This document shows, in pieces, positions 9,917 to 57,457 of a stretch of DNA of 64,000 bases (within the stretch, counting starts at the first letter, position 1; every line of letters starts with the position of its first letter). The stretch is from Escherichia phage PC3. The stretch lies in the sequence record ON184125; one strand, given 5' to 3'. A program made the position numbers and the translations under genes. Under the pieces are notes generated by a model, which ran no database searches, was not told where the DNA came from, and saw only the letters and a list, made by a program, of their open reading frames with translations.

Positions 9917-9941
9917 AGGCCTCATTCGACGAGGCCTTTTA
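9917..9941 (+). terminator. rho-independent terminator
   Basis: AGGCCTC-attcgac-GAGGCCT followed by TTTT. Confidence 0.7.
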
Positions 9942-9951
9942 AAATACTTCA

Positions 9952-9976
9952 AAAATAATTTTTTAAAAATTATTGA
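9952..9976 (+). repeat. AT-rich palindrome
   Basis: AATAATTTT tt AAAATTATT inverted repeat between terminator and promoter-like box. Confidence 0.5.
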
Positions 9977-9990
9977 AAAAGACTTTACTC

Positions 9991-10015
9991 TTCAATAATG
10001 ATGCACTATTATAGT
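9991..10015 (+). promoter_or_regulatory. promoter-like element (TTCAATAA box + TATTAT/TATAGT -10-like)
   Basis: TTCAATAA at 9991 followed 11-13 nt later by TATTATAGT; member of recurring motif class (see findings). Confidence 0.45.
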
Positions 10016-10085
10016 TCACATAGGGCGGCAACACACCGCCGAATGAAAAGTGAAACGCACCAACTACATTATGAGGAATTACATC

Positions 10086-13005: not shown

Positions 13006-13031
13006 TTCAATCTACGAGGGCGGCGTATAAT
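13006..13031 (+). promoter_or_regulatory. promoter-like element TTCAAT-N14-TATAAT overlapping a GC hairpin
   Basis: CGCCGCC-ttcaatctacgag-GGCGGCG then TATAAT; TTCAAT lies in the loop. Confidence 0.45.
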
Positions 13032-29122: not shown

Positions 29123-29782
29123 ATGTCCTACTCCCTGAAGGGGCTGATGAAGCGCCCCGTCCACACATTCTTTAAACCACCCGTCGTAAAGGGGATCTAC
29201 CCAGCACGAGGGCAAATCTACTACGTCAAAGGCTCCAATGGTAGCGGTAAATCCACTGTGCCGTCTCAGCTGGCGGAGAGGGATCCTCAGGCGTATGTCG
29301 TGACCCATAACGGCAAGGTAATGCTGACTGTCTGTCCTTCGTTCAACGTGGTCTGTATCGGTAAATATGACAAGTCGAAGTCCAAGGGGGTTGATTCCCT
29401 GAAGGACACTGAGCAGATGTTGTTCGCGTTGTCTATTGCTGACCAACCAGAATACTTGAAATATGATGTGATTTTCGAAGGTATCATTCCATCCACATTA
29501 TTGAGTTCTTGGATCCCCCGCCTGACACGCCCACCACGTGAATTGGTTGTGCTCTTTATGGACACTCCCCTTGAAACGTGTATCTCCCGCGTTAAATCAC
29601 GTAACGGCGGTGTGGACTTCAATGAAAGTCTGGTGGTCGAGAAGTGGGAGAGAGTTCATGACCATCGTCAACGACATAAAGACTTGTTCCCTACGGTAGC
29701 TGCGGGTATGATGAAGTCTCACGGCCTAACGGTAGACCAGGCTGTGATGGCATTCCTCTGTCGTGATTTTGGGAGTATCTGA
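29123..29782 (+). CDS. P-loop kinase, candidate 5-hydroxymethyl-dU DNA kinase-like
   Basis: 219 aa; Walker A GSNGSGKST near N-terminus; sits directly upstream of and overlapping the ThyA homolog. Confidence 0.55.
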   Translation: MSYSLKGLMKRPVHTFFKPPVVKGIYPARGQIYYVKGSNGSGKSTVPSQLAERDPQAYVVTHNGKVMLTVCPSFNVVCIGKYDKSKSKGVDSLKDTEQMLFALSIADQPEYLKYDVIFEGIIPSTLLSSWIPRLTRPPRELVVLFMDTPLETCISRVKSRNGGVDFNESLVVEKWERVHDHRQRHKDLFPTVAAGMMKSHGLTVDQAVMAFLCRDFGSI

Positions 29783-30828
29783 TGGAAATCAAAGCAATTA
29801 ACAACAATGACATGCTGAAGCAGGCTGTCTTGGCTATCCGTGAATTCGGGATCGAATCTGATCCTGGTAATGCTGAAATAAATACTGATAGCACCCGCTT
29901 CCTTGATGGCGTGACCATAACCGTCGCCGACATCCGTGACCGCTGGCTATCCGTTGAAGGTCGTAACTCATCGGCTATCGCTGCCATCGGCGAGACCTTC
30001 TGGGTTCTGTCCGGGCGCGATGACGTTCGCTTCCTGTCCCGCGTATTACCTCGCGCTGCTAACTTTTCGGATGATGGGGTAACATGGCGAGCTGCTTATG
30101 GTCCGCGTCTGTACGCCCATGGCCAGCTGGATAGCGTTATCAACCGCCTGCGCAAGAACCCAAACACTCGCCAGGCGTACCTCACCATCTATGACCCGGC
30201 TCTAGATTCGGATGCTGGTCTGGCGAAGTTCAGCGAGAGCGGCGAAGCAAAGACTAAGGACATGGTGTGTAACCTGGCTCTGTTGTTCGCCATCGTTGAA
30301 GGTCGTCTGAACCTGACGGTCATCAACCGCTCACAGGATGTTCTGTGGGGGATGAGTTCAATCAACTTCATTGAGTTCTCTATTCTTCAGGAAGTGATTG
30401 CTCGGGTGCTGGACGTTGACGTCGGTCAGTACAAGCTATTCTCTAACAATCTTCATTACTACAACAATGAAGTCAGCCAGAAGCAGCTTGGCAAGATTAC
30501 CAAAGACACAAAAGTCACTGGTGGTTTCATCAACTCCATGATTCACTTCACGAACGTGACCAACCAGAACCATATCCGCAATCTGTTCACTGGTGTGCTT
30601 CATCACTGTGATATCGGCAGCCCGTGGGAAACTGTGGTCGCCCACCTGAAGGAATATGATGCTGATCGTGGCCTGATTGTACAGATGGCGTACTGTCTGC
30701 ACTGCAAACTGAACGAAAAGCTCATTAACCTGGACCTGATTCAGGATCATGGCTTGAACACCGCGCTCACCCATTCTCCGGTTGACCGCAAGATCGTTGA
30801 TCCTAAGTTCCTGGAAGGTGTAGTATGA
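29782..30828 (+). CDS. thymidylate synthase family protein (possible pyrimidine hydroxymethylase)
   Basis: 348 aa with ThyA-like segments (YGPRLYAHGQLDSVINRLRKNPNTRQAYLTIYDP); longer than canonical ThyA. Confidence 0.7.
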   Translation: MEIKAINNNDMLKQAVLAIREFGIESDPGNAEINTDSTRFLDGVTITVADIRDRWLSVEGRNSSAIAAIGETFWVLSGRDDVRFLSRVLPRAANFSDDGVTWRAAYGPRLYAHGQLDSVINRLRKNPNTRQAYLTIYDPALDSDAGLAKFSESGEAKTKDMVCNLALLFAIVEGRLNLTVINRSQDVLWGMSSINFIEFSILQEVIARVLDVDVGQYKLFSNNLHYYNNEVSQKQLGKITKDTKVTGGFINSMIHFTNVTNQNHIRNLFTGVLHHCDIGSPWETVVAHLKEYDADRGLIVQMAYCLHCKLNEKLINLDLIQDHGLNTALTHSPVDRKIVDPKFLEGVV

Positions 30829-31394
30829 TGTACCCAAATCTTGAATTCTTTACGGGGCGCAAACGCTCCGGCAAGGACTTCTGTTTGGAGTCCCTGATCA
30901 GTTACCACCACTTACAGGGTGATATGGACATACAGCGCCTTTCTTTCTCTGATGAACTGCGCCGTGTAGCCAACTACATCTACCCATGGCTCCCAGCGGA
31001 GGTAGAGGATGCCGTGAAGGACGTTCCTTACGTGCACCCTGATAACCCCAAGGGCTTAACTCCACGGCAGATCTGGCTTCATCTAGGCAGCGATACGGGC
31101 TTGCGTTATGTACAGCCTGATCTGTTCCTGGCATTCTTCAAGCGCTTCCAGCTTCCTCTGGTAGAGCAGAACCCCCACGTCCATTATATCGTGAGCGATC
31201 TGCGTACCCCTCAGGAATATGAATGGGCGCTGAGTACGAAATGTCCTATCACCCGTATTTCAAAGGCCGACCGTGCTGGTATCATAGAGGACGATATAGA
31301 GGCTTTCATTGACCAAATGAAAGTGGACTACGAATTCCTCAATCCATTTGATGGTTGGGAACCGTTCGTTAAATTCTACGGAGAACGTAAATGA
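30825..31394 (+). CDS. deoxynucleoside monophosphate kinase (T4 gp1-like)
   Basis: 189 aa; GRKRSGKDF resembles T4 dNMP kinase P-loop. Confidence 0.7.
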   Translation: MMYPNLEFFTGRKRSGKDFCLESLISYHHLQGDMDIQRLSFSDELRRVANYIYPWLPAEVEDAVKDVPYVHPDNPKGLTPRQIWLHLGSDTGLRYVQPDLFLAFFKRFQLPLVEQNPHVHYIVSDLRTPQEYEWALSTKCPITRISKADRAGIIEDDIEAFIDQMKVDYEFLNPFDGWEPFVKFYGERK

Positions 31395-31945
31395 TCACAG
31401 CAGGGCATATCAAAAGCCTGCTCGAACTCCAAAAGGCCACCAACGTGGCCTACTTTGGGGAAGAGTGGAAGAATGTATGGAGTCAGAACGCAGTCATCAA
31501 CTCTATCTATCGTGAGTGGGCAGAGTTCCTTGATGAAACCACCCGTGACTGGAAGGTCTATGGCAACGACATCGGGTTTGACCATACGAACGCAGTTTAT
31601 GAACTGGTGGACGTGGTACACTTCATGTTGTGCTTCATCCTTGTGGACCGCACCAAAGGTGAGATCGAAGAAGAATTTGAAGTCCTTAGTAATCGCGAAT
31701 TCACCCCATCTGCTTTGGGTGTTGTAGGGCATCACAATGTTACGTACCGCCTTGGGCAATTCATGAACGATCCTTGCGTTGAGACTCTCATGTTCTTCCT
31801 GTCGTCTGCGTGTTCTTATATGGAGATCGACATTGAGACTTACATACTGGCACACAAACGCAAGAACGATCGCAATCGCCTGCGTGCTGCTGGTGGCGCG
31901 GATTACGATAAGTCTGCAGAAACCCCTCTGACCCTGGAGTTCTAA
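31391..31945 (+). CDS. dCTPase/dUTPase-like nucleotide pyrophosphatase (T4 gp56-like)
   Basis: 184 aa; ELVDVVHFMLCFIL resembles recalled gp56 ELVDIFHFVLNMF. Confidence 0.6.
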   Translation: MITAGHIKSLLELQKATNVAYFGEEWKNVWSQNAVINSIYREWAEFLDETTRDWKVYGNDIGFDHTNAVYELVDVVHFMLCFILVDRTKGEIEEEFEVLSNREFTPSALGVVGHHNVTYRLGQFMNDPCVETLMFFLSSACSYMEIDIETYILAHKRKNDRNRLRAAGGADYDKSAETPLTLEF

Positions 31946-46775: not shown

Positions 46776-47390
46776 ATGAGCAACTATCTTCAGGGGAAGT
46801 ACACCCCAGTTAATCCCAAGAAGTATCAGGGGAATGTGAATAACATCATCTTCCGCTCTTCGCTGGAGTTGGTGGCTTTCAAGTTCTGTGATATGAACTC
46901 CGCGATAGTGAAGTGGTCTAGTGAGGAGACCGTAATCCCTTACATTTCCCCAGTCGACGGGCGCACCCATCGTTACTTCATGGACCTCAAAGTCTGGACG
47001 CGCCGTGAAGGGCAAGAGGAACTACAGGTCACCCTCATTGAGATCAAGCCCAAAGACCAGATCAAGCAGCCGAAGAAGACTCCGAACATGAAGGAGTCGA
47101 CATTCAACAATGCGATGCGAACCTGGTTGGTCAATTCTGCCAAGTGGGAGGCCACCCGCGAACTGTGTGCCAAGAAGAACTGGAAGTTCATTATATGGAC
47201 TGAAGAGCATCTTGTTCCGGGTGAAGATCCGGATGTTCGTAAACAGTTTGAGCTGAAGTCGAAAAAGAAACGGGATATGGAGATGCAAGATCGCCGACAT
47301 GCCGAACGTGTCAGGGTGCTGAAGGAACAGATGCGGAAGGAGATTAAACCCGCCCCAACGGAGCGGGATGATGGACTGCTCTTACCTTAA
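46776..47390 (+). CDS. hypothetical protein with highly charged C-terminus
   Basis: 204 aa, divergent from the baseplate operon; upstream imperfect palindrome related to the one at 22400. Confidence 0.6.
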   Translation: MSNYLQGKYTPVNPKKYQGNVNNIIFRSSLELVAFKFCDMNSAIVKWSSEETVIPYISPVDGRTHRYFMDLKVWTRREGQEELQVTLIEIKPKDQIKQPKKTPNMKESTFNNAMRTWLVNSAKWEATRELCAKKNWKFIIWTEEHLVPGEDPDVRKQFELKSKKKRDMEMQDRRHAERVRVLKEQMRKEIKPAPTERDDGLLLP

Positions 47391-47599
47391 CTTCTCTTGT
47401 GGCCAGGGGCGTAACAGGTATGCCTGTCGCGCCCAATTTGCCAGCCGTCTGATCGCGCCTGTTTGACACACTCACCCCAAGTCTCACCAGTGTATTGTTT
47501 GAACCCGCACTTGGGGTGATGCTCTTCCCAAGCCCAACTGCATGCCTTGCAATCTGAGCATTCACAATAAAGATCGATGGTGTAACCTGAAATGATCAT
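47387..47599 (-). CDS. small Cys-rich protein
   Basis: 70 aa; CECSDCKAC ... HPKCG ... HTCYAPGH. Confidence 0.5.
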   Translation of the reverse strand: MIISGYTIDLYCECSDCKACSWAWEEHHPKCGFKQYTGETWGECVKQARSDGWQIGRDRHTCYAPGHKRS

Positions 47600-47601
47600 G
47601 A

Positions 47602-48009
47602 TCAGTCTTCTAGGTGATCGTAGATCTTCTGGCGGAACGCATTACCACCAGCACAACCCTTGGCCAGCAGGTGGGTGCCGCCCGTACCGATCACGCTGAT
47701 TGTTGAGAAGCCCAGGATGCGACCTGTGATGGACTGATCAACCTTCACTGTCTCCACCTTACCGATGCGCAACTCATCAGCATCACGACGGATGAAACCA
47801 CGTTTGACGATGACGCGCTTGTTAGTCACAGCGAATTCAGTTGTCAATACATTTAAAATTGTTGGTATCAGAAATAACAAGCTGAATCCAAATGTTGGGA
47901 TAAACGTTAAAATAACCAGAACGTAAATCCAAAAACCGCTCCACCAAGTCGGGCGGGTGAAGGCAATAACGTGCTCGTCTTTGCCGAGCATACGATCTAC
48001 ATAACGCAT
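47602..48009 (-). CDS. membrane protein with bacterial PH-like (YdbT/DUF304-like) fold
   Basis: 135 aa; two N-terminal TM segments followed by a segment resembling bPH_2 domains. Confidence 0.5.
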   Translation of the reverse strand: MRYVDRMLGKDEHVIAFTRPTWWSGFWIYVLVILTFIPTFGFSLLFLIPTILNVLTTEFAVTNKRVIVKRGFIRRDADELRIGKVETVKVDQSITGRILGFSTISVIGTGGTHLLAKGCAGGNAFRQKIYDHLED

Positions 48010-48019
48010 GATAAATTCC

Positions 48020-48529
48020 TTATTTGTCAGGGTTCACTAAAACAGGGGTGGATACCAGTTCGCCGCTCTTCACAGAATGCTGGACTACAACAATCTGATC
48101 GACCATGCGATATACTTCAATCCCAGCAGCCAGCATTTCAATAATGCCGTCTATGATACGATATGGTCGGTCATAGAACACTTTAGCGATCTTGCCACTG
48201 TCGATAATACGACGGGTGCACTCTGGGCATGGACTATGAGTGACAAACATCACCAGGCCACAACAGTCTTCAGTGTGCTGGGGGAGTTTGCTCAGAGCAT
48301 TCTCCTCGGCGTGGATAACACCCACCGATACCAGTTGACCGTCTACTTCCTTCTCACAGACATTAGGAGCGCCAGGAGCAGTCCCGTTCCAACCGATAGA
48401 CAGGGGCTGGTCAACACGCGGGTCAACGATAACACAGCCGACCTTCAGGCGCTGGGCATAGCTGGACAGAGCGTATGCATGAGCCGATCGCATATGCGCA
48501 AACAACATACGGGGTTTGATAGTCATCAC
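48020..48529 (-). CDS. dCMP deaminase
   Basis: 169 aa; zinc-binding HAEENAL and PCPEC motifs of cytidine/dCMP deaminases. Confidence 0.8.
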   Translation of the reverse strand: MMTIKPRMLFAHMRSAHAYALSSYAQRLKVGCVIVDPRVDQPLSIGWNGTAPGAPNVCEKEVDGQLVSVGVIHAEENALSKLPQHTEDCCGLVMFVTHSPCPECTRRIIDSGKIAKVFYDRPYRIIDGIIEMLAAGIEVYRMVDQIVVVQHSVKSGELVSTPVLVNPDK

Positions 48530-48840
48530 ATCACCAGTTTCTTTTCAAGGAGGAAGATCATGTCGTCTTGGTCTGCACGACCAAAGATCTGACCCATGGC
48601 GACCATCTGGTGGACTTCCCTGACAATGATTTCTTTGCCAGGAGTAACTTCATCCAGGTCCATGATAGTGCTGACGCGGTCTACCATGCGCGGCGGGTGA
48701 TTAATGTAGCGCTGCAGGTACTTCTCGCGAGTGGCAATCAGGTTGTTCAGCTCGGCGATTTCAGACTCTTCTTCTGAGAAGCGCTTTTCCTTCGCCTGTA
48801 GTTCAGCCAGACGCTCATACATTTCTTTTAATGGGGTCAT
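48526..48840 (-). CDS. hypothetical protein
   Basis: 104 aa. Confidence 0.5.
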   Translation of the reverse strand: MTPLKEMYERLAELQAKEKRFSEEESEIAELNNLIATREKYLQRYINHPPRMVDRVSTIMDLDEVTPGKEIIVREVHQMVAMGQIFGRADQDDMIFLLEKKLVM

Positions 48841-48909
48841 TTCCGGTTCCTCTTAATAAACGAAGGGAAGTATATACTCCCCCTTCTTCAATAACCGCTG
48901 AATCTTTAT

Positions 48910-49248
48910 TCAGAGATAAGATTTACCGAGTTCGGTCAGGCGATAGAACGTCACCTCAGTGTTCGGCCAGTTCACGTAAGAACCGTCATGAACCATTGAG
49001 CCAGCTGGTTCGATCAACCCCTTGGCGAGCAGGGAAGCCCCTGTGCGGGTGTCCCATGGGTCGCCTTTGACGGAGGTGAAACCACCAGTGTTCGGGCATA
49101 CCTGGAACGTCCAGGCGGTGTTGCCCTTGTCATTGGTCCAGGATTTGGGATGCAAGTACCATTCACCATAACGGCAATGACCTTTCTCAAAGTTCTCCAT
49201 CCCGTAGAGAACCAAGAGTTGGTGTCCTGTAATACGCGGCTTTTTCAT
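48910..49248 (-). CDS. hypothetical protein
   Basis: 112 aa from internal Met 18 (ATGA overlap with upstream stop). Confidence 0.5.
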   Translation of the reverse strand: MKKPRITGHQLLVLYGMENFEKGHCRYGEWYLHPKSWTNDKGNTAWTFQVCPNTGGFTSVKGDPWDTRTGASLLAKGLIEPAGSMVHDGSYVNWPNTEVTFYRLTELGKSYL

Positions 49249-49562
49249 GACAATACTCCTTTCAGAGCTAAAACGGAAAGCACACCAATAATCAACCATG
49301 TCGGGATAATCGGCTTGCAGTTCATGTGGGTTTCTCCACCTTCGATGTTTGGACTTCCTTGTATAAGAACGTGTTCACAGGAAGCTCTGAACGTCATTAC
49401 ACAGCCCATCAACACAATCGGCCTGATATAATAACCCGTTTTAGTTTGCTTCACGATACATGGAGAGGAGAAGCGCAGATATGGATCCCCTTTCCGGTAG
49501 CCTGTGATTGTGACCTTCTGCACTTCAGAAGGCACCTTTTGGCCAGGAAAATAAATTTTCAT
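49245..49562 (-). CDS. hypothetical protein
   Basis: 105 aa, ATGA-coupled. Confidence 0.5.
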
Positions 49563-50119
49563 ATTTCAATCCCCAGATTGGTGTATAACAACTCAGACAG
49601 GGTTACAGGACGCTTGAATTGTTCCCAACTACAGTTCAGGTATTCACGTTCTTCACGCATTTCACTGTGAAGATGACCATGGATATTATACGCCCAGCGG
49701 TCCAATTGATAAGGAACGTGAGTGGTCAGCACACGACCAACCGGAGTATCACGCTCATACATCGCACCAAAGGAGCTAATCCATCCCTCTTGATACAGCT
49801 GCATCAACATCTTGAATCTGTCATGGTTGCCTTGCGCCACCCTGATGATAAAGTTCGGTCGCCAGTCATCGGGAACCGGGCGGCGCTTGAACTCATCAAT
49901 ATTCCTCTTGGCACCCTCGCGCATCAGGCGAATGAACCCCTCAGCCCCGATGAAGCAGATGTCCCCAGCCAGTTCAAGGACGTCTCGGGACTTCAGCCCC
50001 TGAAAGATACTGTCGATAACTGCAGCATCATGCGCCTCTTGGGTATCGAACCCACGGGGCTTGAAGACCTTCTTGTGTCCGAGGTGGGTGTCGCCCAGAT
50101 ATTTTACAATTCCTGCCAT
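49559..50119 (-). CDS. calcineurin-like metallophosphoesterase
   Basis: About 186 aa; GDTHLG, GNHD and HGHLH metal-binding motifs; start at Met 7 (TAATG coupling) or 50137. Confidence 0.7.
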
Positions 50120-50547
50120 TATGGTCTCCTCAACCATTCTAAAATCGATACGTTCACAAACCCCTTATGCCAGCGATGGGGTTTATGGCCTCTGTTGTGT
50201 TCGAGCAAACACGTGTCCGGTGGGACACTGAAGTGGATGCCGTCGATGTCGTAGTAATGCCCATCAATCAGAGTATACACATGACCTTCGGTCTGACTGT
50301 AATGGATCTCTGCTTGGGGATACACGTGCTTCAGAAGTAGAGCAACCTGGTAACACTTCCCGTTCTTCCCCACGTACTCGACATCCACCTGTTGTGGAAA
50401 CACATCTTTGACAAGGTTTATCAATCTCGTGATGTCATTTACAACAACCGAACGTTTCATATCGCCTCTCCCGAGGATTCGTTGGTGAACCAATGATACT
50501 CTATCCCGGATATAGAAAAGCCCCTCACGGGGCTTGATCGTCTTCAT
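50119..50547 (-). CDS. hypothetical protein
   Basis: 142 aa. Confidence 0.5.
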
Positions 50548-50827
50548 CAGGGAATATACGCCATCGACTTATTCCATACCACTCACCGATAGAGTTCCAT
50601 GTCCTTTCCCCAGGCCAGCCACCGACCGTGTAGTAATGCGCTACCAGCCGCCAGTAAGGAAGAGAGGCCATGTTCACGCCGCCGTCGGCCTTTAGGCAGG
50701 CCAAGTACCAATTCGTGAGACTGAACGCCTGAAATAACGGATGAAGGAACATGAAGTATAGGTAGCCCAATATGGCTGCGAACACCCCAGCTATTACGAT
50801 AGCGCCAATAACTGTGAAGAATATCAT
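50525..50827 (-). CDS. small membrane protein
   Basis: 100 aa with N-terminal TM segments. Confidence 0.5.
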   Translation of the reverse strand: MIFFTVIGAIVIAGVFAAILGYLYFMFLHPLFQAFSLTNWYLACLKADGGVNMASLPYWRLVAHYYTVGGWPGERTWNSIGEWYGISRWRIFPDEDDQAP

Positions 50828-51456
50828 TCTTTCACCTCCAGCCCCATCAGATCTTCCATGGTCTTCTGAATACGCAGCCAGTCAAGCGCAGCGTCATAAC
50901 GAGGGTCATGATAGACCATACCTTCCAGTTCCCAAGCCTTGATGCCAGCGTAGCGATCCTGTTGACCAACACCCTTCAGCCAGCTCACGATGTCGAAGGT
51001 GTGGTGGTAGTCCCAAGGTTCGTTGGAGTCCTGCTTACATGTCACCTCAATGATGTGCTGAGCCTTGCGCAGATCGAACAAGTTACGGTCACACCAGTCA
51101 ACCGAGCGCGGGTCTACCCCAAGACGATGACAACCCTTGCGGATTTCATCGGCCAGCTGGAAGATAGAGATGTCCTGCTCAGTCGGGTACAGACTGACGG
51201 CGCGAGCCGCATCACACGGGTTGCGCTTGCCCGTGCCCAGCCACCATTCAACTGTCCCAGCGTCCTTCACGCGACCAAGTTCGAGCTGCTCTTTGACATT
51301 CAGCTTAATGAACGTCGTGCGCTCCTCAACCAGCTGCTGAAGAGTATAACGCTTGGTCAGGTCAGCGATGGTGTGCGCCCAGGACAACATGACTGCATCA
51401 TCCCAGCGCCCCAGGGTTTCGCTGTCGGCAACTGCAAGGAAATTAGACTTGTACAT
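50824..51456 (-). CDS. 3'-5' exonuclease (DexA-like, tentative)
   Basis: 210 aa; N-terminal AVADSETLG resembles DEDD exonuclease motif I. Confidence 0.45.
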   Translation of the reverse strand: MYKSNFLAVADSETLGRWDDAVMLSWAHTIADLTKRYTLQQLVEERTTFIKLNVKEQLELGRVKDAGTVEWWLGTGKRNPCDAARAVSLYPTEQDISIFQLADEIRKGCHRLGVDPRSVDWCDRNLFDLRKAQHIIEVTCKQDSNEPWDYHHTFDIVSWLKGVGQQDRYAGIKAWELEGMVYHDPRYDAALDWLRIQKTMEDLMGLEVKE

Positions 51457-52056
51457 TTACGCCTCCTCGTCGATGATTTCTTGCTCATCTTCGACAATCA
51501 TGATACCTTCTGTGTCCAGATGAGAAAGTTCCATCAGATCATCATCGAATCCGTCTCCTTCCCTGATATAGAAGACTGGGACGACACGACGGCGGGTCTC
51601 TTCATACACGCTTTCAGAGATTCGATTGATATGGCGCACTACACTGTAGAGGTTCAGGCCACCAATGCCACAGCCGATAGCAGGCAGGCCGACATAGACA
51701 GTTTCGTCTTTAGTTGCTTCCACAATTTCATGCACCTGCTCAAACAGGGTCTGAACAGAACTGATGACTGACGGCATTCGAGCGTTCGGACCTGGATAAA
51801 ACTGAGTGTAGAGGTTCGCGCCCCAAACGCCCTTGCTGTGGTCAAATGCATAGGACATACCACCCAGGCGTTGCTCTGGACCACGAGGGTCGTTAGCATC
51901 GACTTCACGCAGGGCTGGGAAGTTGTTACCGATGTGCAGGGCAATACCCGCGCCCATGGTAGACCAACAGTTGGCACCGTGGGCAAAGATGTCGATCAGA
52001 TTGAAGCTACAGGCGGCTTTCAGTAGATCGCCACCATTGATTACATATGTGGTCAT
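51457..52056 (-). CDS. macro domain protein (ADP-ribose binding/hydrolase fold)
   Basis: About 199 aa from Met 6 (ATGA coupling); YVINGGDLLKAA...IDIFAHGANCWSTMGAGIA matches the macro-domain N-terminal signature. Confidence 0.65.
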   Translation of the reverse strand: MTTYVINGGDLLKAACSFNLIDIFAHGANCWSTMGAGIALHIGNNFPALREVDANDPRGPEQRLGGMSYAFDHSKGVWGANLYTQFYPGPNARMPSVISSVQTLFEQVHEIVEATKDETVYVGLPAIGCGIGGLNLYSVVRHINRISESVYEETRRRVVPVFYIREGDGFDDDLMELSHLDTEGIMIVEDEQEIIDEEA

Positions 52057-52295
52057 GCGTACTGTCTCCATTCAATAATGCTGTTGTCAACACATGACAC
52101 CTGGATGATGCCTGTGCGGTGGTGATAATCAGTCATCTGCATGATAAAGTTGTTCCCATTGCGGATAATGGTGTTGACAACGATACCCTTGGCAGCAAGG
52201 CGTATTACAATGGCAGTGCAAAGGCGGTCCATGTAACCGGACACAGAACCTGGTTCGAAGCATCGCTCGAACAGATTTTCAAATTCTGGGCTCAT
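52053..52295 (-). CDS. hypothetical protein
   Basis: 80 aa. Confidence 0.45.
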   Translation of the reverse strand: MSPEFENLFERCFEPGSVSGYMDRLCTAIVIRLAAKGIVVNTIIRNGNNFIMQMTDYHHRTGIIQVSCVDNSIIEWRQYA

Positions 52296-52320
52296 TTGAT
52301 GTTACCAAACAAGAGGTCGA

Positions 52321-52343
52321 GGCGGTAATAATACCGCCTTTTT
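52321..52343. other. hairpin followed by T-run on plus strand inside a minus-strand operon
   Basis: GGCGGTA-ataa-TACCGCC then TTTTTCTTC. Confidence 0.5.
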
Positions 52344-52345
52344 CT

Positions 52346-52756
52346 TCAATAGAGGTCTTCGGAAAAGAGTTCGCGGAAAGGGGTTGTCTTCAGGCGCACC
52401 TGATTGATCTGTCCAGCTTCACGGGCTACGATGCACGCCTCTTCACGAGTGAGGAAGTTGCCCTGGTTGTCGATGAATCCCTGTTCGCGGGTATGGGTGG
52501 ATTTAATGACGCCTGCTTCTTTCAGGATCTTGAGCTGGCTGTTCATGAATCGGCTGTGGTGACGGTCAGCAACGACGATTACATCACCATATTTGTTGGC
52601 GGCAGCGACCACACGGCGCTCCCAGGCACCTTCGACAGGAAGGTCACGGGTGTACAATGGAATCATCGTATCACCGATGTCATCCCCCTTCACCTGTGAG
52701 AACAACTTGCCTTCAGTGCCCGTTGGGAGTTCACGAAAATATCCCAGTAATTTCAT
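52346..52756 (-). CDS. hypothetical protein
   Basis: 136 aa, first complete gene of the minus-strand accessory operon. Confidence 0.6.
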   Translation of the reverse strand: MKLLGYFRELPTGTEGKLFSQVKGDDIGDTMIPLYTRDLPVEGAWERRVVAAANKYGDVIVVADRHHSRFMNSQLKILKEAGVIKSTHTREQGFIDNQGNFLTREEACIVAREAGQINQVRLKTTPFRELFSEDLY

Positions 52757-53072
52757 AATCTATTCAATCCAAATTTCAGGTTCAGAGATGTCGACCATAT
52801 CCACTGTCTGGTTCTTCAGATCACGGAAACAGTCGCCGAGGAATTGTATTTTGCCGTCGGTCAGGAACAGATGGCAAATGATGCTGGATCAGTTTCATTC
52901 ACCAGCAGGCTCGGTGTGAACGTAGGCTCAATAACATTGTTGTTCCACGACCACATCGGACCTTGGGCATCACCCTTTACGCGATATGGGTGAAGTATAT
53001 CACACCCAGGACAATGAAAATACAAGGAATCATCCGTAGACAGAAGTTTAGGGCTCAGAAGCTATGTTATGA
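52757..53072 (-). pseudogene. possible frameshifted coding remnant
   Basis: Three consecutive coding-like segments in three frames on the minus strand; last segment ends with TAG 3 nt upstream of ATG 52756. Confidence 0.25.
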
Positions 53073-53380: not shown

Positions 53381-53398
53381 GGAGGGGCGAACCCCTCC
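53381..53398. other. GC hairpin between topoisomerase medium subunit and downstream gene
   Basis: GGAGGGG-cgaa-CCCCTCC perfect 7 bp stem, no T-run. Confidence 0.55.
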
Positions 53399-53402
53399 GA
53401 TG

Positions 53403-54735: not shown

Positions 54736-56634
54736 TTATTCATCCTCAGTTTCAAATAGGCAAACATCGCTAAACCAGGTTTTGCGGTAATCGGCGGCCT
54801 CGTCACCGAAGCCATTCTTCAGTGACTGTTGATAGCCATCGTCCAGCGTGACCGTCGTAGTATACGCATCCAGGTTGTTTAGAATACGTTTGAAGTCTTC
54901 AGTGCTGTTACCACCCAGACCTTTCAGATATTTCTTCTTCGTGATCTTCTTGGCATCAGGCGTCTTCAGGAACTCCTCATACTCTGCGTTGTTCATGAAC
55001 TCATGCATCACCTTGCCACACCACACACGCATGTAAGGGGTGCGCAGGAGCTTCAGCCTGCCCTGACGGACGTACTCCGGCCAGTAGGTGCAATACAGGG
55101 TGATCAACAACCCACGGATGTGAATGCCGTCATCGTCCGCATCGGTAGCCACAACAGTCTGTGGGTAACGGGTGATGTCAAGGGGCTGGCCTGGTACTGC
55201 ACCGCCGTGGATCGTACACAGGTTCTTGAACTCTTCATTGTTCATCACCTTTGAGCGCGGGGCGTTCAGGCAGTTGATGAACTTACCACGAAGCGGGAAC
55301 AACCCGATCTTCTTGGTGTCGCGGGCGTTCAGGATAGGATTGGAGGCACTATCACCCTCTGTCAGCAACAGGGAGCATCCGCTGCGGTCACCACGGGCGG
55401 TCGCCGGGTAATACTTCTCAATCTCACGATAATCCCGCTTGCTGATGTCCTTCTTGGCCTTTTCAAACTCAGCATCATCCTGCTCATTGCGCAGGGAAGC
55501 CAGTTCTTTGCTCAGACCAGCCGTAACGAACTCAAGCGCCTTGCGGATCAGTTTATCGCTGGGCTTGTACGACGTACCGAACTGGCTTACAGGAGTGGTC
55601 ATGCGCTCCTTGGTCTGGCTGTCAAAGCGCGGGTTGTTGATGTCGGCGGCGATGAACAAGGACATGTGGTTCTTGATCATTGCTGGCTTCAGTTCGGTCT
55701 TGAACTTCTTCACCAGCTGGGGACGAATCGCTGCCACGATCTGGTCAGCAACATAATCAACGTGAGGACCACCGATGTGGGTGGCAATAGAGTTCACGTA
55801 TGATGCGTGCATGAACGTACCGGATGAAGGGGCTACAGCAACAGACCAATCCCCGGTTTCGTCAACAGCCGAACCAGCATGGAAGTAATCAACGAAGTGG
55901 CCAAAGCGGTCAATCCGGATTTGCTTCCCATTGAGAACAATCTTCAGGCGCGGGTTACACGCAGCCACTTCAAACGCGCGGCGATAGATCATCAGCAGGT
56001 TGTTCTGGTCAAGTCCTTTGACGCCCAGACGAGCATAGTCAGGGATCCAGGCGATGGATGTGCCGGGACTGTTCACGTTGCTGATGACTGGGTTAGATTT
56101 CTTGCTCATGTTGTCTTCAAACGTCTGAGTATAAGACTTCTTGCCGTCATTAGTCGTGACGCGGAACCATTTGGAGAACACGTTGACGAGGGACGCCCCT
56201 TCGCCATTCTGACCACCGGACTTCTGGTTGTTGTACTCTTCGTCTTCGTCGTTGAAGTTCGATCCTGCAAACAATTCTGAAAATAACATTTCTGGCAACC
56301 ACATACCAGATTCATGCTTGACCACAGGGATACCCCCGTTGTCAGCAACGATGATTTGACCGTTCATCGGGGAAACTGTGACGGTGATTTCCGTCAGGGA
56401 TTTACCCTCAGGGGTCTTGCTGTGGTCAACACAGTTGGTGATGATTTCATCAAACTGTTTGATAAGAGCGGGGTTATATTCAAAATTGTCTTTAAACACA
56501 ACTTTGTCTTTGCTGAGATCATATACCCAAGCCATCCCGACAGAAGAACGGATACTCCCTAGATGGCGCTCTGGGCGAAGGAGTATATGCTCGATGTGTG
56601 AGAGCTTTTTGTATTTTCTGTTTACATCAACCAT
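54736..56634 (-). CDS. DNA topoisomerase II large subunit (fused T4 gp39+gp60-like, GyrB-type ATPase)
   Basis: 632 aa; GHKL ATPase N-terminus, TOPRIM region, longer than T4 gp39 alone. Confidence 0.85.
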   Translation of the reverse strand: MVDVNRKYKKLSHIEHILLRPERHLGSIRSSVGMAWVYDLSKDKVVFKDNFEYNPALIKQFDEIITNCVDHSKTPEGKSLTEITVTVSPMNGQIIVADNGGIPVVKHESGMWLPEMLFSELFAGSNFNDEDEEYNNQKSGGQNGEGASLVNVFSKWFRVTTNDGKKSYTQTFEDNMSKKSNPVISNVNSPGTSIAWIPDYARLGVKGLDQNNLLMIYRRAFEVAACNPRLKIVLNGKQIRIDRFGHFVDYFHAGSAVDETGDWSVAVAPSSGTFMHASYVNSIATHIGGPHVDYVADQIVAAIRPQLVKKFKTELKPAMIKNHMSLFIAADINNPRFDSQTKERMTTPVSQFGTSYKPSDKLIRKALEFVTAGLSKELASLRNEQDDAEFEKAKKDISKRDYREIEKYYPATARGDRSGCSLLLTEGDSASNPILNARDTKKIGLFPLRGKFINCLNAPRSKVMNNEEFKNLCTIHGGAVPGQPLDITRYPQTVVATDADDDGIHIRGLLITLYCTYWPEYVRQGRLKLLRTPYMRVWCGKVMHEFMNNAEYEEFLKTPDAKKITKKKYLKGLGGNSTEDFKRILNNLDAYTTTVTLDDGYQQSLKNGFGDEAADYRKTWFSDVCLFETEDE

Positions 56635-57457
56635 TATTATCTCCGTAAAATTTCAACCAGGCGGGATCTTCTTTTGGTATCCAACCTTTCTGAAATTTAG
56701 ATATACAAGTTTGAGCTGTGGCCTTAGAACAAACAGAGCTTAACCCGGTTTCTTTCAACATTAAACAATAACGGTTCTTCACTTTGTCTTCACCGTTACT
56801 ATACCACCATTCAAAGAATTCACCAGCCAAGAGCCATTGTCGGGATTTACCCGTCTTTACGACAGTCGGGTGTTCCCAAGGTTGTATGTTATTCATGGGA
56901 TTGTTCTGGCGCCACATAGCAGAATACCTCTCCCTTTCTTCTGGTCGCCTCATCCGTTCGGTGACTGATTTGGTAAGATTGGCTTTGTGTGCTTCGGAGT
57001 GTGGTATCCCTTTCCTGGATTTTGACAACCTGCGCCTTGATTCGTCATTCCAAGTGTAACCTCTCAAACTATCCGCACGTTTCTTCTGTACTTCTGGGTT
57101 CAATGAGTTTTTCTTGGATTGCTTACGACAACGTTCCTTTTGTTCATCAGATGACATCACTTCTTTCATTCTGGTGGAATTATTTCTCCTCAATTCCCCA
57201 AACTCTTTGTTGTTCCTAGACATGTTGTTCATCCCAGTCCATGCCTTCCTGATACCGGGGTTGAGTGGTTTTGTTCTCCAAAGTAAGTGATGTACGACAT
57301 AATGTTCTTCTGGTGTCAACCATACAAGATTAGAGAAGTGGTTAGTGCCACCCAAGCACACAGGGATTATATGGTGGCGTTCTTGATAAACGCCATCCAT
57401 TTTACCTCTCTGTATTGCTCTCTGTATGAGAGCGTCTAAGATGATTTCGTATTTCAT
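56627..57457 (-). CDS. HNH homing endonuclease
   Basis: 276 aa; ERHHIIPVCLGGTNHFSNLVWLTPEEHYVVH HNH motif; basic C-terminal half; abuts the topoisomerase start. Confidence 0.75.
   Translation of the reverse strand: MKYEIILDALIQRAIQRGKMDGVYQERHHIIPVCLGGTNHFSNLVWLTPEEHYVVHHLLWRTKPLNPGIRKAWTGMNNMSRNNKEFGELRRNNSTRMKEVMSSDEQKERCRKQSKKNSLNPEVQKKRADSLRGYTWNDESRRRLSKSRKGIPHSEAHKANLTKSVTERMRRPEERERYSAMWRQNNPMNNIQPWEHPTVVKTGKSRQWLLAGEFFEWWYSNGEDKVKNRYCLMLKETGLSSVCSKATAQTCISKFQKGWIPKEDPAWLKFYGDNNG
56627..57457 (-). mobile_element. putative homing endonuclease insertion upstream of topoisomerase II
   Basis: Free-standing HNH gene overlapping the 5' end of the topoisomerase large-subunit gene. Confidence 0.35.

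Follow-up and report, generated by a model that had tools for sequence, protein, structure and literature searches.

Gene content and stem-loop organization of a thirteen-gene, probably accessory region in an Ackermannviridae phage

The stretch of DNA studied here (the window) comprises 64,000 nucleotides (nt) of Escherichia phage PC3 (ON184125) and corresponds to positions 64001-128000 of Escherichia phage PH4, which is classified in the Ackermannviridae, subfamily Aglimvirinae (the former ViI-like phages). At 47387-52756 it holds a block of 5,370 bases, 100% identical to PH4 (ON184126.1) 111387-116756, in which thirteen genes follow one another on the minus strand. A preliminary description of this DNA regarded the block as a single translationally coupled operon of a T4-like phage, expressed early and devoted to host takeover and anti-defence. 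Our results point, with a probability of approximately 0.7, to a different organization, i.e., a plastic accessory region that forms the promoter-distal end of a one-directional run of ~31 kb and is parted by stem-loops into four sub-blocks. The attribution to a T4-like phage has to be given up as well, since the family is the Ackermannviridae; the ViI-like phages have some 50-60 genes in common with T4 (PMC3121705), yet they are not strictly T4-like. The genes, with their lengths in amino acids (aa), the three stem-loops (SL1 to SL3) and the features at both ends of the block are, in the direction of transcription:

52760..53037, minus strand: degraded DUF6527 gene, PF20137 on an N-terminal fragment; 3-nt gap to gene 1
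52346..52756, minus strand: gene 1, 136 aa, Arn.3-like family, phrog_839; homologues carry PF26092
52320..52340, minus strand: SL1, in the 50-nt gap between genes 1 and 2; -16.5 kcal/mol, z = -3.6
52053..52295, minus strand: gene 2, 80 aa, DUF7234 (PF23881, E = 7.7e-41; phrog_5593)
51457..52056, minus strand: gene 3, 199 aa, macrodomain protein (phrog_335, E = 7.9e-63); its start overlaps the stop of gene 2 (ATGA)
50824..51456, minus strand: gene 4, 210 aa, DexA-type 3'-5' exonuclease (phrog_255, E = 1.8e-53); abuts the stop of gene 3 (TAAATG)
50525..50827, minus strand: gene 5, 100 aa, transmembrane segment at residues 2-20 (phrog_2531); ATGA overlap with gene 4
50518..50536, minus strand: SL2, AAGCCCC GTGA GGGGCTT followed by TTTCTAT, a 7-bp GC stem with a T-tail; overlaps the end of gene 5
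50119..50460, minus strand: gene 6, 113 aa, Phage_YunG-like (PF24591, E = 1.6e-42)
49559..50119, minus strand: gene 7, 186 aa, calcineurin-type metallophosphoesterase (phrog_547, E = 4e-43); TAATG overlap with gene 6
49245..49562, minus strand: gene 8, 105 aa, DUF7618 (PF24594, E = 1.3e-49), transmembrane segment at residues 85-103; ATGA overlap
48910..49248, minus strand: gene 9, 112 aa, phrog_4677; ATGA overlap, AAGGAG Shine-Dalgarno sequence
48863..48884, minus strand: SL3, in the 69-nt gap between genes 9 and 10; -18.4 kcal/mol, z = -2.3
48526..48840, minus strand: gene 10, 104 aa, phrog_4059
48020..48526, minus strand: gene 11, 168 aa, dCMP deaminase (Cd; phrog_174, E = 2.2e-52); TGATG overlap with gene 10
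47602..48009, minus strand: gene 12, 135 aa, membrane-flanked bacterial PH domain protein (bPH_2; PF03703, E = 1.9e-12; phrog_3707, E = 9e-75), transmembrane segments at residues 30-62; 10-nt gap after gene 11
47387..47599, minus strand: gene 13, 70 aa, seven cysteines (phrog_926, E = 4.8e-26); 2-nt gap after gene 12, weak Shine-Dalgarno sequence
47349..47367, minus strand: GC-rich terminator-like hairpin, CCCGCTCC GTT GGGGCGGG followed by TTTAATCT

The thirteen minus-strand open reading frames (ORFs) that had been proposed to fill 47387-52756 are all genuine. Each matches a PHROG family (E 1.7e-22 to 9e-75), and tblastn searches recovered 13 out of 13, in the same order, in the phages LHE287, ChubbyThor, EspM4VN, fGh-Ecl02, and Maynard, and 11 out of 13 in Menlow (Taipeivirus); Agtre-, Kutter-, and Taipeivirus share the gene order. 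The long ORFs on the plus strand of the region, e.g., 50908-51771 (287 aa), match no PHROG family and are therefore regarded as spurious, and an Rfam search of the region gave no match at E ≤ 1. For five genes the ORF as listed was too long; Shine-Dalgarno context, the annotation of relatives, and the position where the PHROG profile begins favor starts at 52056, 50460, 50119, 49248, and 48526. In genes 3, 7, 9, and 11 the stop of the upstream gene coincides exactly with an internal ATG that is well served by a Shine-Dalgarno sequence, in agreement with the annotations of the depositors. The true start of gene 6 is at 50460 and not at 50547: both the PHROG and the Pfam profile begin there (residue 30 of the long ORF), it is served by the Shine-Dalgarno sequence GGGAGAGG, and the proteins of relatives measure 113-114 aa. 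Every gene of the block that is annotated in the PH4 record is labelled “hypothetical”. Gene 13, the last 4 nt of which overlap the end of the convergent gene gp4, is missing from the annotations of PH4 and LHE287; its conservation (50-98% identity in all seven relatives) and its membership of phrog_926 indicate that it is a real gene. The macrodomain, DexA, membrane protein, metallophosphoesterase, dCMP deaminase, bPH_2, and Cys-rich identities given in the preliminary description are all borne out by families, motifs, and transmembrane prediction, although only two of the “three unknowns” that it placed ahead of the macrodomain gene, in a list of 14 items, lie within the block.

The distances between consecutive genes, read from gene 13 to gene 1, are +2, +10, -1, +69, -4, -4, -1, +64, -4, 0, -4, and +50 nt. 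The earlier statement that nearly every start overlaps the preceding stop is thus true for seven of the twelve junctions, which overlap or abut, whereas the other five have gaps of 2, 10, 50, 64, and 69 nt. Nine junctions are at ≤10 nt, which leaves three true gaps (50, 64, and 69 nt). At these gaps coupling fails, and three conserved stem-loops split the block there into 1 + 4 + 4 + 4 genes (gene 1; genes 2-5; genes 6-9; genes 10-13), within each of which all junctions are ≤10 nt; a single coupled operon of 13 genes is, therefore, not supported.

The stem-loops were found by a scan of the region and are stable. SL1 and SL3 have a common layout, kept in three genera: TATTGAAGAA is combined with a G-rich stem and with TAT(A/T)AT, which lies in or around the loop. 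At SL1, TATTGAAGAA precedes the stem and TATTAT lies in and around the loop (TTGAAG-N10-TATTAT); this stem-loop is kept in Kutter- and Taipeivirus. At SL3, TATTGAAGAA comes before the stem, TATATACT lies in the loop, and a T-rich tail follows, and the element is conserved in three genera and in 14 IMG/VR contigs, with compensatory changes in the stem. SL2, the sequence of which differs from that of SL1 and SL3, has the classical shape of a terminator, followed by TTTTCT-N15-TATCAT; it is conserved in four genera and annotated as a terminator in Maynard and Menlow. The distance from the -10-like hexamer to the next start codon is 25-30 nt at SL1 and SL3 and ~45 nt at SL2.

Relatives differ in gene content, with insertions just downstream of SL1 and SL2. 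In ChubbyThor and Maynard an extra 74-aa gene directly follows SL1, and the 3' edge of this hairpin is where the homology with PH4 ends. ChubbyThor, fGh-Ecl02, Maynard, and Menlow carry a QueC-like gene and a small gene downstream of SL2; PH4 shows at 50461-50524 a clean two-gene deletion, from ribosome-binding site to ribosome-binding site, with a breakpoint ~45 nt past the hairpin and with homology resuming at the ribosome-binding site of gene 6, ~10 nt before its start codon. The genes that PH4 is without are the QueC-like (“alpha hydrolase”) gene and a 77-aa gene (compare L004 4599-5515 and L006 4571-5490). Between the conserved DexA gene, which is 91-99% identical across genera, and SL2, the allele of gene 5 has been swapped: in phages whose DexA has 91-98% identity, that of gene 5 falls to 35-44%. 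Replacement of the allele or diversifying change would account for this pattern, which is one expected of a host-interaction or exclusion protein. In Dickeya phage RC-2014 (L009 7614-7834), gene 1 is reduced to 54 residues and gene 7 to 24, and nothing lies between them. This phage is thus without the macrodomain (AdfM-like) gene, DexA, gene 5, and gene 6 (genes 2-6 are absent) but keeps genes 9-13, and gene 9 is retained in Limestonevirus at 93% identity. Consequently, genes 1-7 are dispensable for the family. Together with the whole-gene insertions and deletions in relatives, the losses of RC-2014 support an accessory, and probably non-structural, role of these genes as judged by comparative genomics. 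Virion proteomics of phage AG3, based on six bands only, contained none of the proteins of the block and has no bearing on a structural role.

The block is not an isolated unit. Its DNA matches 299 phage records, 186 of them over ≥80% of its length, mainly from phages of Salmonella (Kuttervirus), Klebsiella (Taipeivirus), Escherichia/Shigella (Agtrevirus), and Dickeya (Limestonevirus). It forms the distal 5.4 kb of a one-directional minus-strand run of ~31 kb that starts at the DNA polymerase gene (record position 142594), and it sits in the region of replication and nucleotide metabolism, away from the virion genes. Upstream of it lie, all on the minus strand, genes for a 95-aa membrane protein, the medium and large subunits of topoisomerase II, an HNH endonuclease, and rIIB, and a gene of 2757 nt; the latter adjoins rIIB and is probably rIIA, although the PH4 record labels it “hypothetical”. 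The boundary that had been drawn at 52756 does not hold. Only 3 nt separate the end of the degraded DUF6527 gene from gene 1, an indication that the block extends beyond this position, and the same-strand run goes on to the DNA polymerase. In PH4 and LHE287 the DUF6527 gene is a pseudogene, which carries a 1-nt deletion and has a mutated start region (ATG to ATA, with a TAG in frame); ChubbyThor has the whole gene (105 aa), and fGh-Ecl02 and EspM4VN have shortened versions. At the other end, the GC-rich hairpin at 47349..47367 lies 20 nt downstream of gene 13, within the 3' end of the convergent head-completion gene gp4, and a terminator is annotated at the equivalent place in Maynard; it is the probable end of the minus-strand transcription unit.

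Some further observations concern this run. The HNH homing-endonuclease gene (56627-57457, minus strand), which in PH4 lies directly upstream of the gene for the topoisomerase II large subunit, has no counterpart there in LHE287, a phage with 97.5% identity over the block region. The DNA polymerase of PH4 (record 139130-142594, beyond the window) is annotated as two pieces with a 402-nt gap. A GC stem-loop at 53381-53399 (minus strand; GGAGGGG TTCG CCCCTCC), between the genes for the topoisomerase II medium subunit and the 95-aa membrane protein, has no T-tail, so that a role in RNA processing or stability is more likely than one in termination.

Gene 3 is the one member of the block that is linked to counter-defence. 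Its match to the Pfam Macro model is below threshold. The AlphaFold2 model (predicted local distance difference test score 96.8) has the macrodomain fold, with TARG1, Poa1p, and DarG macrodomains as the top Foldseek matches (E ~1e-9 to 1e-8), and the MGAGIA and IGCGIGG loops are largely or nearly invariant. The protein is homologous to T4 Tk.4 (BLASTP, 33% identity over 115 aa, E = 1e-15), with which it shares its PHROG family, the fold group of TARG1, DarG, and Poa1p, and the motifs AHGxNC..TMGxGxA, NLYTQFxPGPN, and PxIGxGIG; it differs from Tk.4 in an additional acidic, confidently modelled C-terminal segment of ~45 residues. The best match to a curated family is DarG (NCBIfam, 33.7 bits against a cutoff of 250, macro part only). 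DarG itself carries its catalytic lysine in a FPTK(K/R)HW motif and has a C-terminal domain that binds DarT. A true DarG is ruled out for gene 3, in which YPGPNAR, without a lysine, aligns to this motif and which, at 199 aa, has no second DarG-like domain. A 2025 preprint reports that, among the genes of T4, tk.4 alone was depleted on a DarTG2 host and that its clean knockout was DarTG2-sensitive; the gene was renamed adfM (anti-DarT factor macrodomain), and a 2026 paper describes that the AdfM of a chimallivirus strips the ADP-ribose added by DarT2 from DNA. On the basis of the homology to Tk.4, this knockout phenotype, and the activity of the chimallivirus AdfM, gene 3 very probably encodes an anti-DarTG2 factor. 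Of the host-takeover and anti-defence content that had been ascribed to the block, this one gene stands, whereas dCMP deaminase and DexA are enzymes of the nucleotide pool.

For the other enzymes the assignments agree with sequence motifs. Gene 4 aligns over residues 9-207 with an exodeoxyribonuclease of 227 aa in the Protein Data Bank (PDB 8kel, E = 1.9e-4) and has the DSE and HDPRYD (H-x4-D) motifs of DexA; a Pfam Rv2179c-like match was below the cutoff. In gene 7 the motifs GDTHL(G), GDICF, GNHD, and GHLH of metallophosphoesterases occur in the correct order; the Pfam Metallophos model gave no match, so that the assignment rests on these motifs and the PHROG family. There is a weak match to PdeM, and homologues occur in T5-like phages at ~27% identity. 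Gene 11 matches PF00383 (E = 4.3e-16, 59.1 bits against a cutoff of 25) and carries HAE at residue 72 and PCPEC at residue 99, as befits Cd. Sequence searches of the PDB gave nothing significant for genes 1, 6, 7, 9, 10, and 13, and gene 10 has no significant Pfam match either; a search of genes 1-10 with PADLOC and NCBIfam yielded only the DarG-type match of gene 3 and the weak PdeM match of gene 7.

The family of gene 1 occurs in 1557 phage records, including arn.3 of T4-type phages, and its invariant residues, among them four of the last seven (...LFSEDLY), are like those of an enzyme. No PDB sequence matches gene 1 at E ≤ 1, and its confident model matches no solved structure. Some T4-type records label its homologues “anti-restriction nuclease”. 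A role as T4 Arn, the anti-restriction DNA mimic, was rejected, as neither a PDB sequence nor a fold matched and better-annotated records say arn.3. Because the protein matches no solved structure in sequence or fold, the label probably reflects a mix-up of arn and arn.3.

Motifs that may act as promoters were counted over 86 kb of PH4. TTGAA[AG]-N9-11-TATNNT occurs at 8 sites (1.05 expected), two of which are SL1 and SL3. TTCAAT-N12-16-TATNNT occurs at 14 sites (0.8 expected), mostly intergenic and co-oriented with the downstream gene but none of them in the block, and is a candidate for a phage promoter class with an unusually short spacer. Sites resembling TTCAAT(A)-N12-16-TATAAT were noted at window positions 13006, 24064, 29066, 35301, and 37870 (plus strand) and at L003 13917, 15194, 18030, and 23130 (minus strand); a perfect palindrome, TTCAATTGAA, is present at L003 13917. 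At 9940-10060 of the window, inverted copies of TATTGAA/TTCAATA (TATTGAAAAAGACTTTACTCTTCAATAATG) lie beside a GC hairpin in an AT-rich intergenic stretch, which may be a regulatory or origin-like site. Upstream of the block a sigma-70-like site, TTTTCA-16-TATAAT, is found at 59377-59350; a strong-looking one inside gene 7, TTATCA-16-TATAAT at 49712-49685, is indistinguishable from chance. The T4 late promoter TATAAATA has two matches in the 64 kb, no enrichment, and none in the block. The ViI-like phages are without MotA, AsiA, Alt, and ModA, and only eight sigma-70-like promoters have been found in them (PMC3184105); Kutter et al., working on CBA120, considered their early promoters not identifiable by informatics (PMC3184105).

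With respect to timing, the preliminary description took the block to be expressed early. Its position and its T4 homologues would suggest expression before or during replication; T4 dexA, cd, tk.4, and arn.3 are all found in prereplicative (early/middle) transcription units. The PhageExpressionAtlas paper never mentions the Ackermannviridae. A joint proposal, which we advance tentatively and consider on balance doubtful, is that the stem-loop cassettes are the early/middle signals of ViI-like phages, comprising both the TTGAA[AG] and the TTCAAT class, and serve at the same time as points of cassette exchange, and that, separately, gene 1 encodes an enzyme whose fold is not represented in the PDB. 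If that reading of the signals were true, their short spacer would imply a phage factor that redirects the host RNA polymerase.

The other Ackermannviridae compared (ViI, CBA120, AG3, PhiSH19, Maynard, and Menlow) have the same genes in the same order, from topoisomerase II (gp52-like) to gp4, and the macrodomain, DexA, dCMP deaminase, and membrane-flanked proteins of the region were already listed in a genome paper of 2011 (PMC3220722). In comparison with these phages, PH4 is without the QueC-like gene and its neighbor and without the 74-aa gene, and it carries a degraded DUF6527 gene and an allele of gene 5 that is its own. The T4 prereplicative genes dexA, cd, and arn.3 have homologous products in the block; in T4 they are scattered over several regions, whereas here they are gathered in 5.4 kb. 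Gene 1 lies just downstream of the homologue of gene 52, as arn.3 lies near or just downstream of gene 52 in T4. The closest analogy for the architecture is formed by the promoter-early stem-loop (PeSL) cassettes of Arbiol (2010) and Comeau (2014), which flank exchangeable genes in the hyperplastic regions of T4-type phages (PMC2839356, PMC4122927). Like those regions, the block consists of small non-essential genes parted by conserved stem-loop/promoter-like motifs, with whole-gene insertions and deletions beside them; stable stem-loops do lie between small genes, and insertions, deletions, and replacements do occur next to the cassettes. However, PeSLs combine a strong sigma-70-like promoter with a terminator, while the block has a -10-like hexamer with TTGAAG 10 nt upstream of it and no canonical -35, and they have been described in the Straboviridae, a family other than that of the phage studied here.

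In functional terms the block is a mixture of nucleotide-pool enzymes, one counter-defence enzyme, a metallophosphoesterase, three small membrane proteins, and six conserved proteins without assigned function (genes 1, 2, 6, 9, 10, and 13). Within the sub-blocks, ribosomes may pass from gene to gene, which would be most relevant for genes with a weak Shine-Dalgarno sequence such as gene 13. The stem-loops would probably act as leaky terminators or as RNA-stabilising ends, and the -10-like hexamer at each of them may add an internal transcription start. DexA would convert DNA fragments to mononucleotides, and dCMP deaminase would produce deoxyuridine monophosphate (dUMP) for a phage thymidylate-synthase-like enzyme. 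In thymidine-modifying phages Cd feeds dUMP to a thymidylate-synthase-like hydroxymethylase, and a thymidylate synthase homologue and a dUTPase are encoded at 29782-31945 of the window. The product of gene 3 would most likely remove DarT2-placed ADP-ribose from phage DNA.

A number of observations weigh against the picture of a plastic region with stem-loop-parted sub-blocks and a counter-defence enzyme. The geometry of the coupling is not special: among the same-strand junctions in the rest of PH4, 31 out of 88 overlap and 42 out of 88 are at ≤10 nt, which is not significantly different from the block (Fisher p = 0.11 and p = 0.07, respectively). Junction tightness is thereby ruled out as a special trait; tight packing is a property of the whole genome. 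A scan of the region with the sigma-70 consensus gave 14 matches against 14.8 expected, i.e., no excess over chance, and the hexamers at SL1-SL3 are without a canonical -35, TTGAAG lying 9-10 nt upstream at SL1 and SL3. The T-tails of SL1 and SL3 on the coding strand are only moderate, and the covariation in the stems rests on three sequence types only. Transcript data for the Ackermannviridae were not found in the searchable literature. As for gene 3, the HMMER alignment places its YPGPN at the position of the DarG motif, and T4 Tk.4 likewise has NLYTQFxPGPN; owing to this difference in motif its chemistry may differ from that of DarG. For T4 AdfM, the enzymatic removal of ADP-ribose was inferred by its authors (2025 preprint).

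Several other explanations of the block have to be considered. That a single promoter upstream of 52756 produces one 13-gene mRNA, coupled from end to end and dedicated to early host takeover and anti-defence, is suggested by the common strand of the 13 genes, a largest gap of only 69 nt, nine of twelve junctions at ≤10 nt, and the one anti-defence homologue among the members, and the stem-loops could be transparent to RNA polymerase. We nevertheless regard it as highly improbable: there is no promoter at 52756, where a degraded gene lies 3 nt upstream and the strand run continues for ~26 kb; coupling is broken at three junctions; the three stem-loops are conserved and one is annotated as a terminator elsewhere; the packing is no tighter than the genome average; and Cd and DexA are metabolic enzymes. 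More serious, if in our judgment still somewhat improbable, is the possibility that the stem-loops are mere intrinsic, partly bidirectional terminators or mRNA-stabilising hairpins, with incidental hexamers and an incidental TATTGAA flank, and that the insertions and deletions only reflect selection for intact genes and not recombination at cassettes. The plus strand of SL1 would indeed make a good terminator (a hairpin followed by TTTTCTTCAAT), TATTGA at SL1 is in part the conserved ...LY-stop of gene 1, the break at SL2 falls at a ribosome-binding site ~45 nt after the hairpin and not within it, and AG3 was reported to have 40 intergenic rho-independent terminators (PMC3121705). It is more difficult to reconcile with the arrangement TATTGAAGAA-stem-TAT(A/T)AT at both SL1 and SL3 in three genera, with the 8-fold enrichment of TTGAA[AG]-N9-11-TATNNT, and with the homology between PH4 and ChubbyThor, which stops exactly at the 3' edge of SL1.

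It seems rather unlikely that the block is mainly a nucleotide-supply module for DNA synthesis or base modification, in which the unassigned genes would be partners of Cd and DexA. Both enzymes are present with intact motifs, every genus, Limestonevirus among them, has kept the Cd-proximal genes 9-13, and the thymidylate synthase homologue and dUTPase occur elsewhere in the window; however, genes 1-7, DexA included, are dispensable in Dickeya phages, three of the members are small membrane proteins, the homologue of gene 3 is defence-related, and nothing ties the unassigned genes to nucleotide metabolism. For gene 3 itself, an ADP-ribose-1''-phosphate phosphatase of the Poa1p/Adpp type has to be considered, which would act on soluble ADP-ribose derivatives, e.g., products of RES-type NAD+ depletion, and not as a DNA de-ADP-ribosylase. 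The top fold matches include Poa1p (6lfq, E = 7e-9), T4-type homologues are labelled “Poa1p-like” or “phosphatase”, the position of the DarG lysine is not conserved, and a phage macro protein whose nearest characterised homologue is Poa1p dephosphorylates ADP-ribose-1''-phosphate. That phosphatase, however, acts with the NARP1 genes of one operon, none of which flanks gene 3 (the flanks only were looked at), TARG1 and DarG are equally close in fold, and the direct homologue T4 Tk.4 gives a DarTG2-specific phenotype; this function is, therefore, unlikely, and an anti-DarTG2 role remains the preferred reading of gene 3.

The region as a whole is an ordinary accessory block of the Ackermannviridae that is widely conserved, had been sequenced before, and is largely known; the new points are the assignment of gene 3 to AdfM and the candidate transcription/exchange cassettes. 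For annotation, at least five “hypothetical” genes of PH4 can now be named (AdfM-like macrodomain protein, DexA, metallophosphoesterase, dCMP deaminase, and bPH_2 protein), and the missed gene 13 can be added. The motifs at the stem-loops provide concrete promoter candidates where the authors of the CBA120 study found none by informatics. The link to AdfM predicts that phages of the Ackermannviridae, which are widely used for the biocontrol of Salmonella and E. coli O157, would be resistant to DarTG2, while the Limestonevirus phages of Dickeya, which are without the AdfM-like gene, are predicted to be possibly DarTG2-sensitive.

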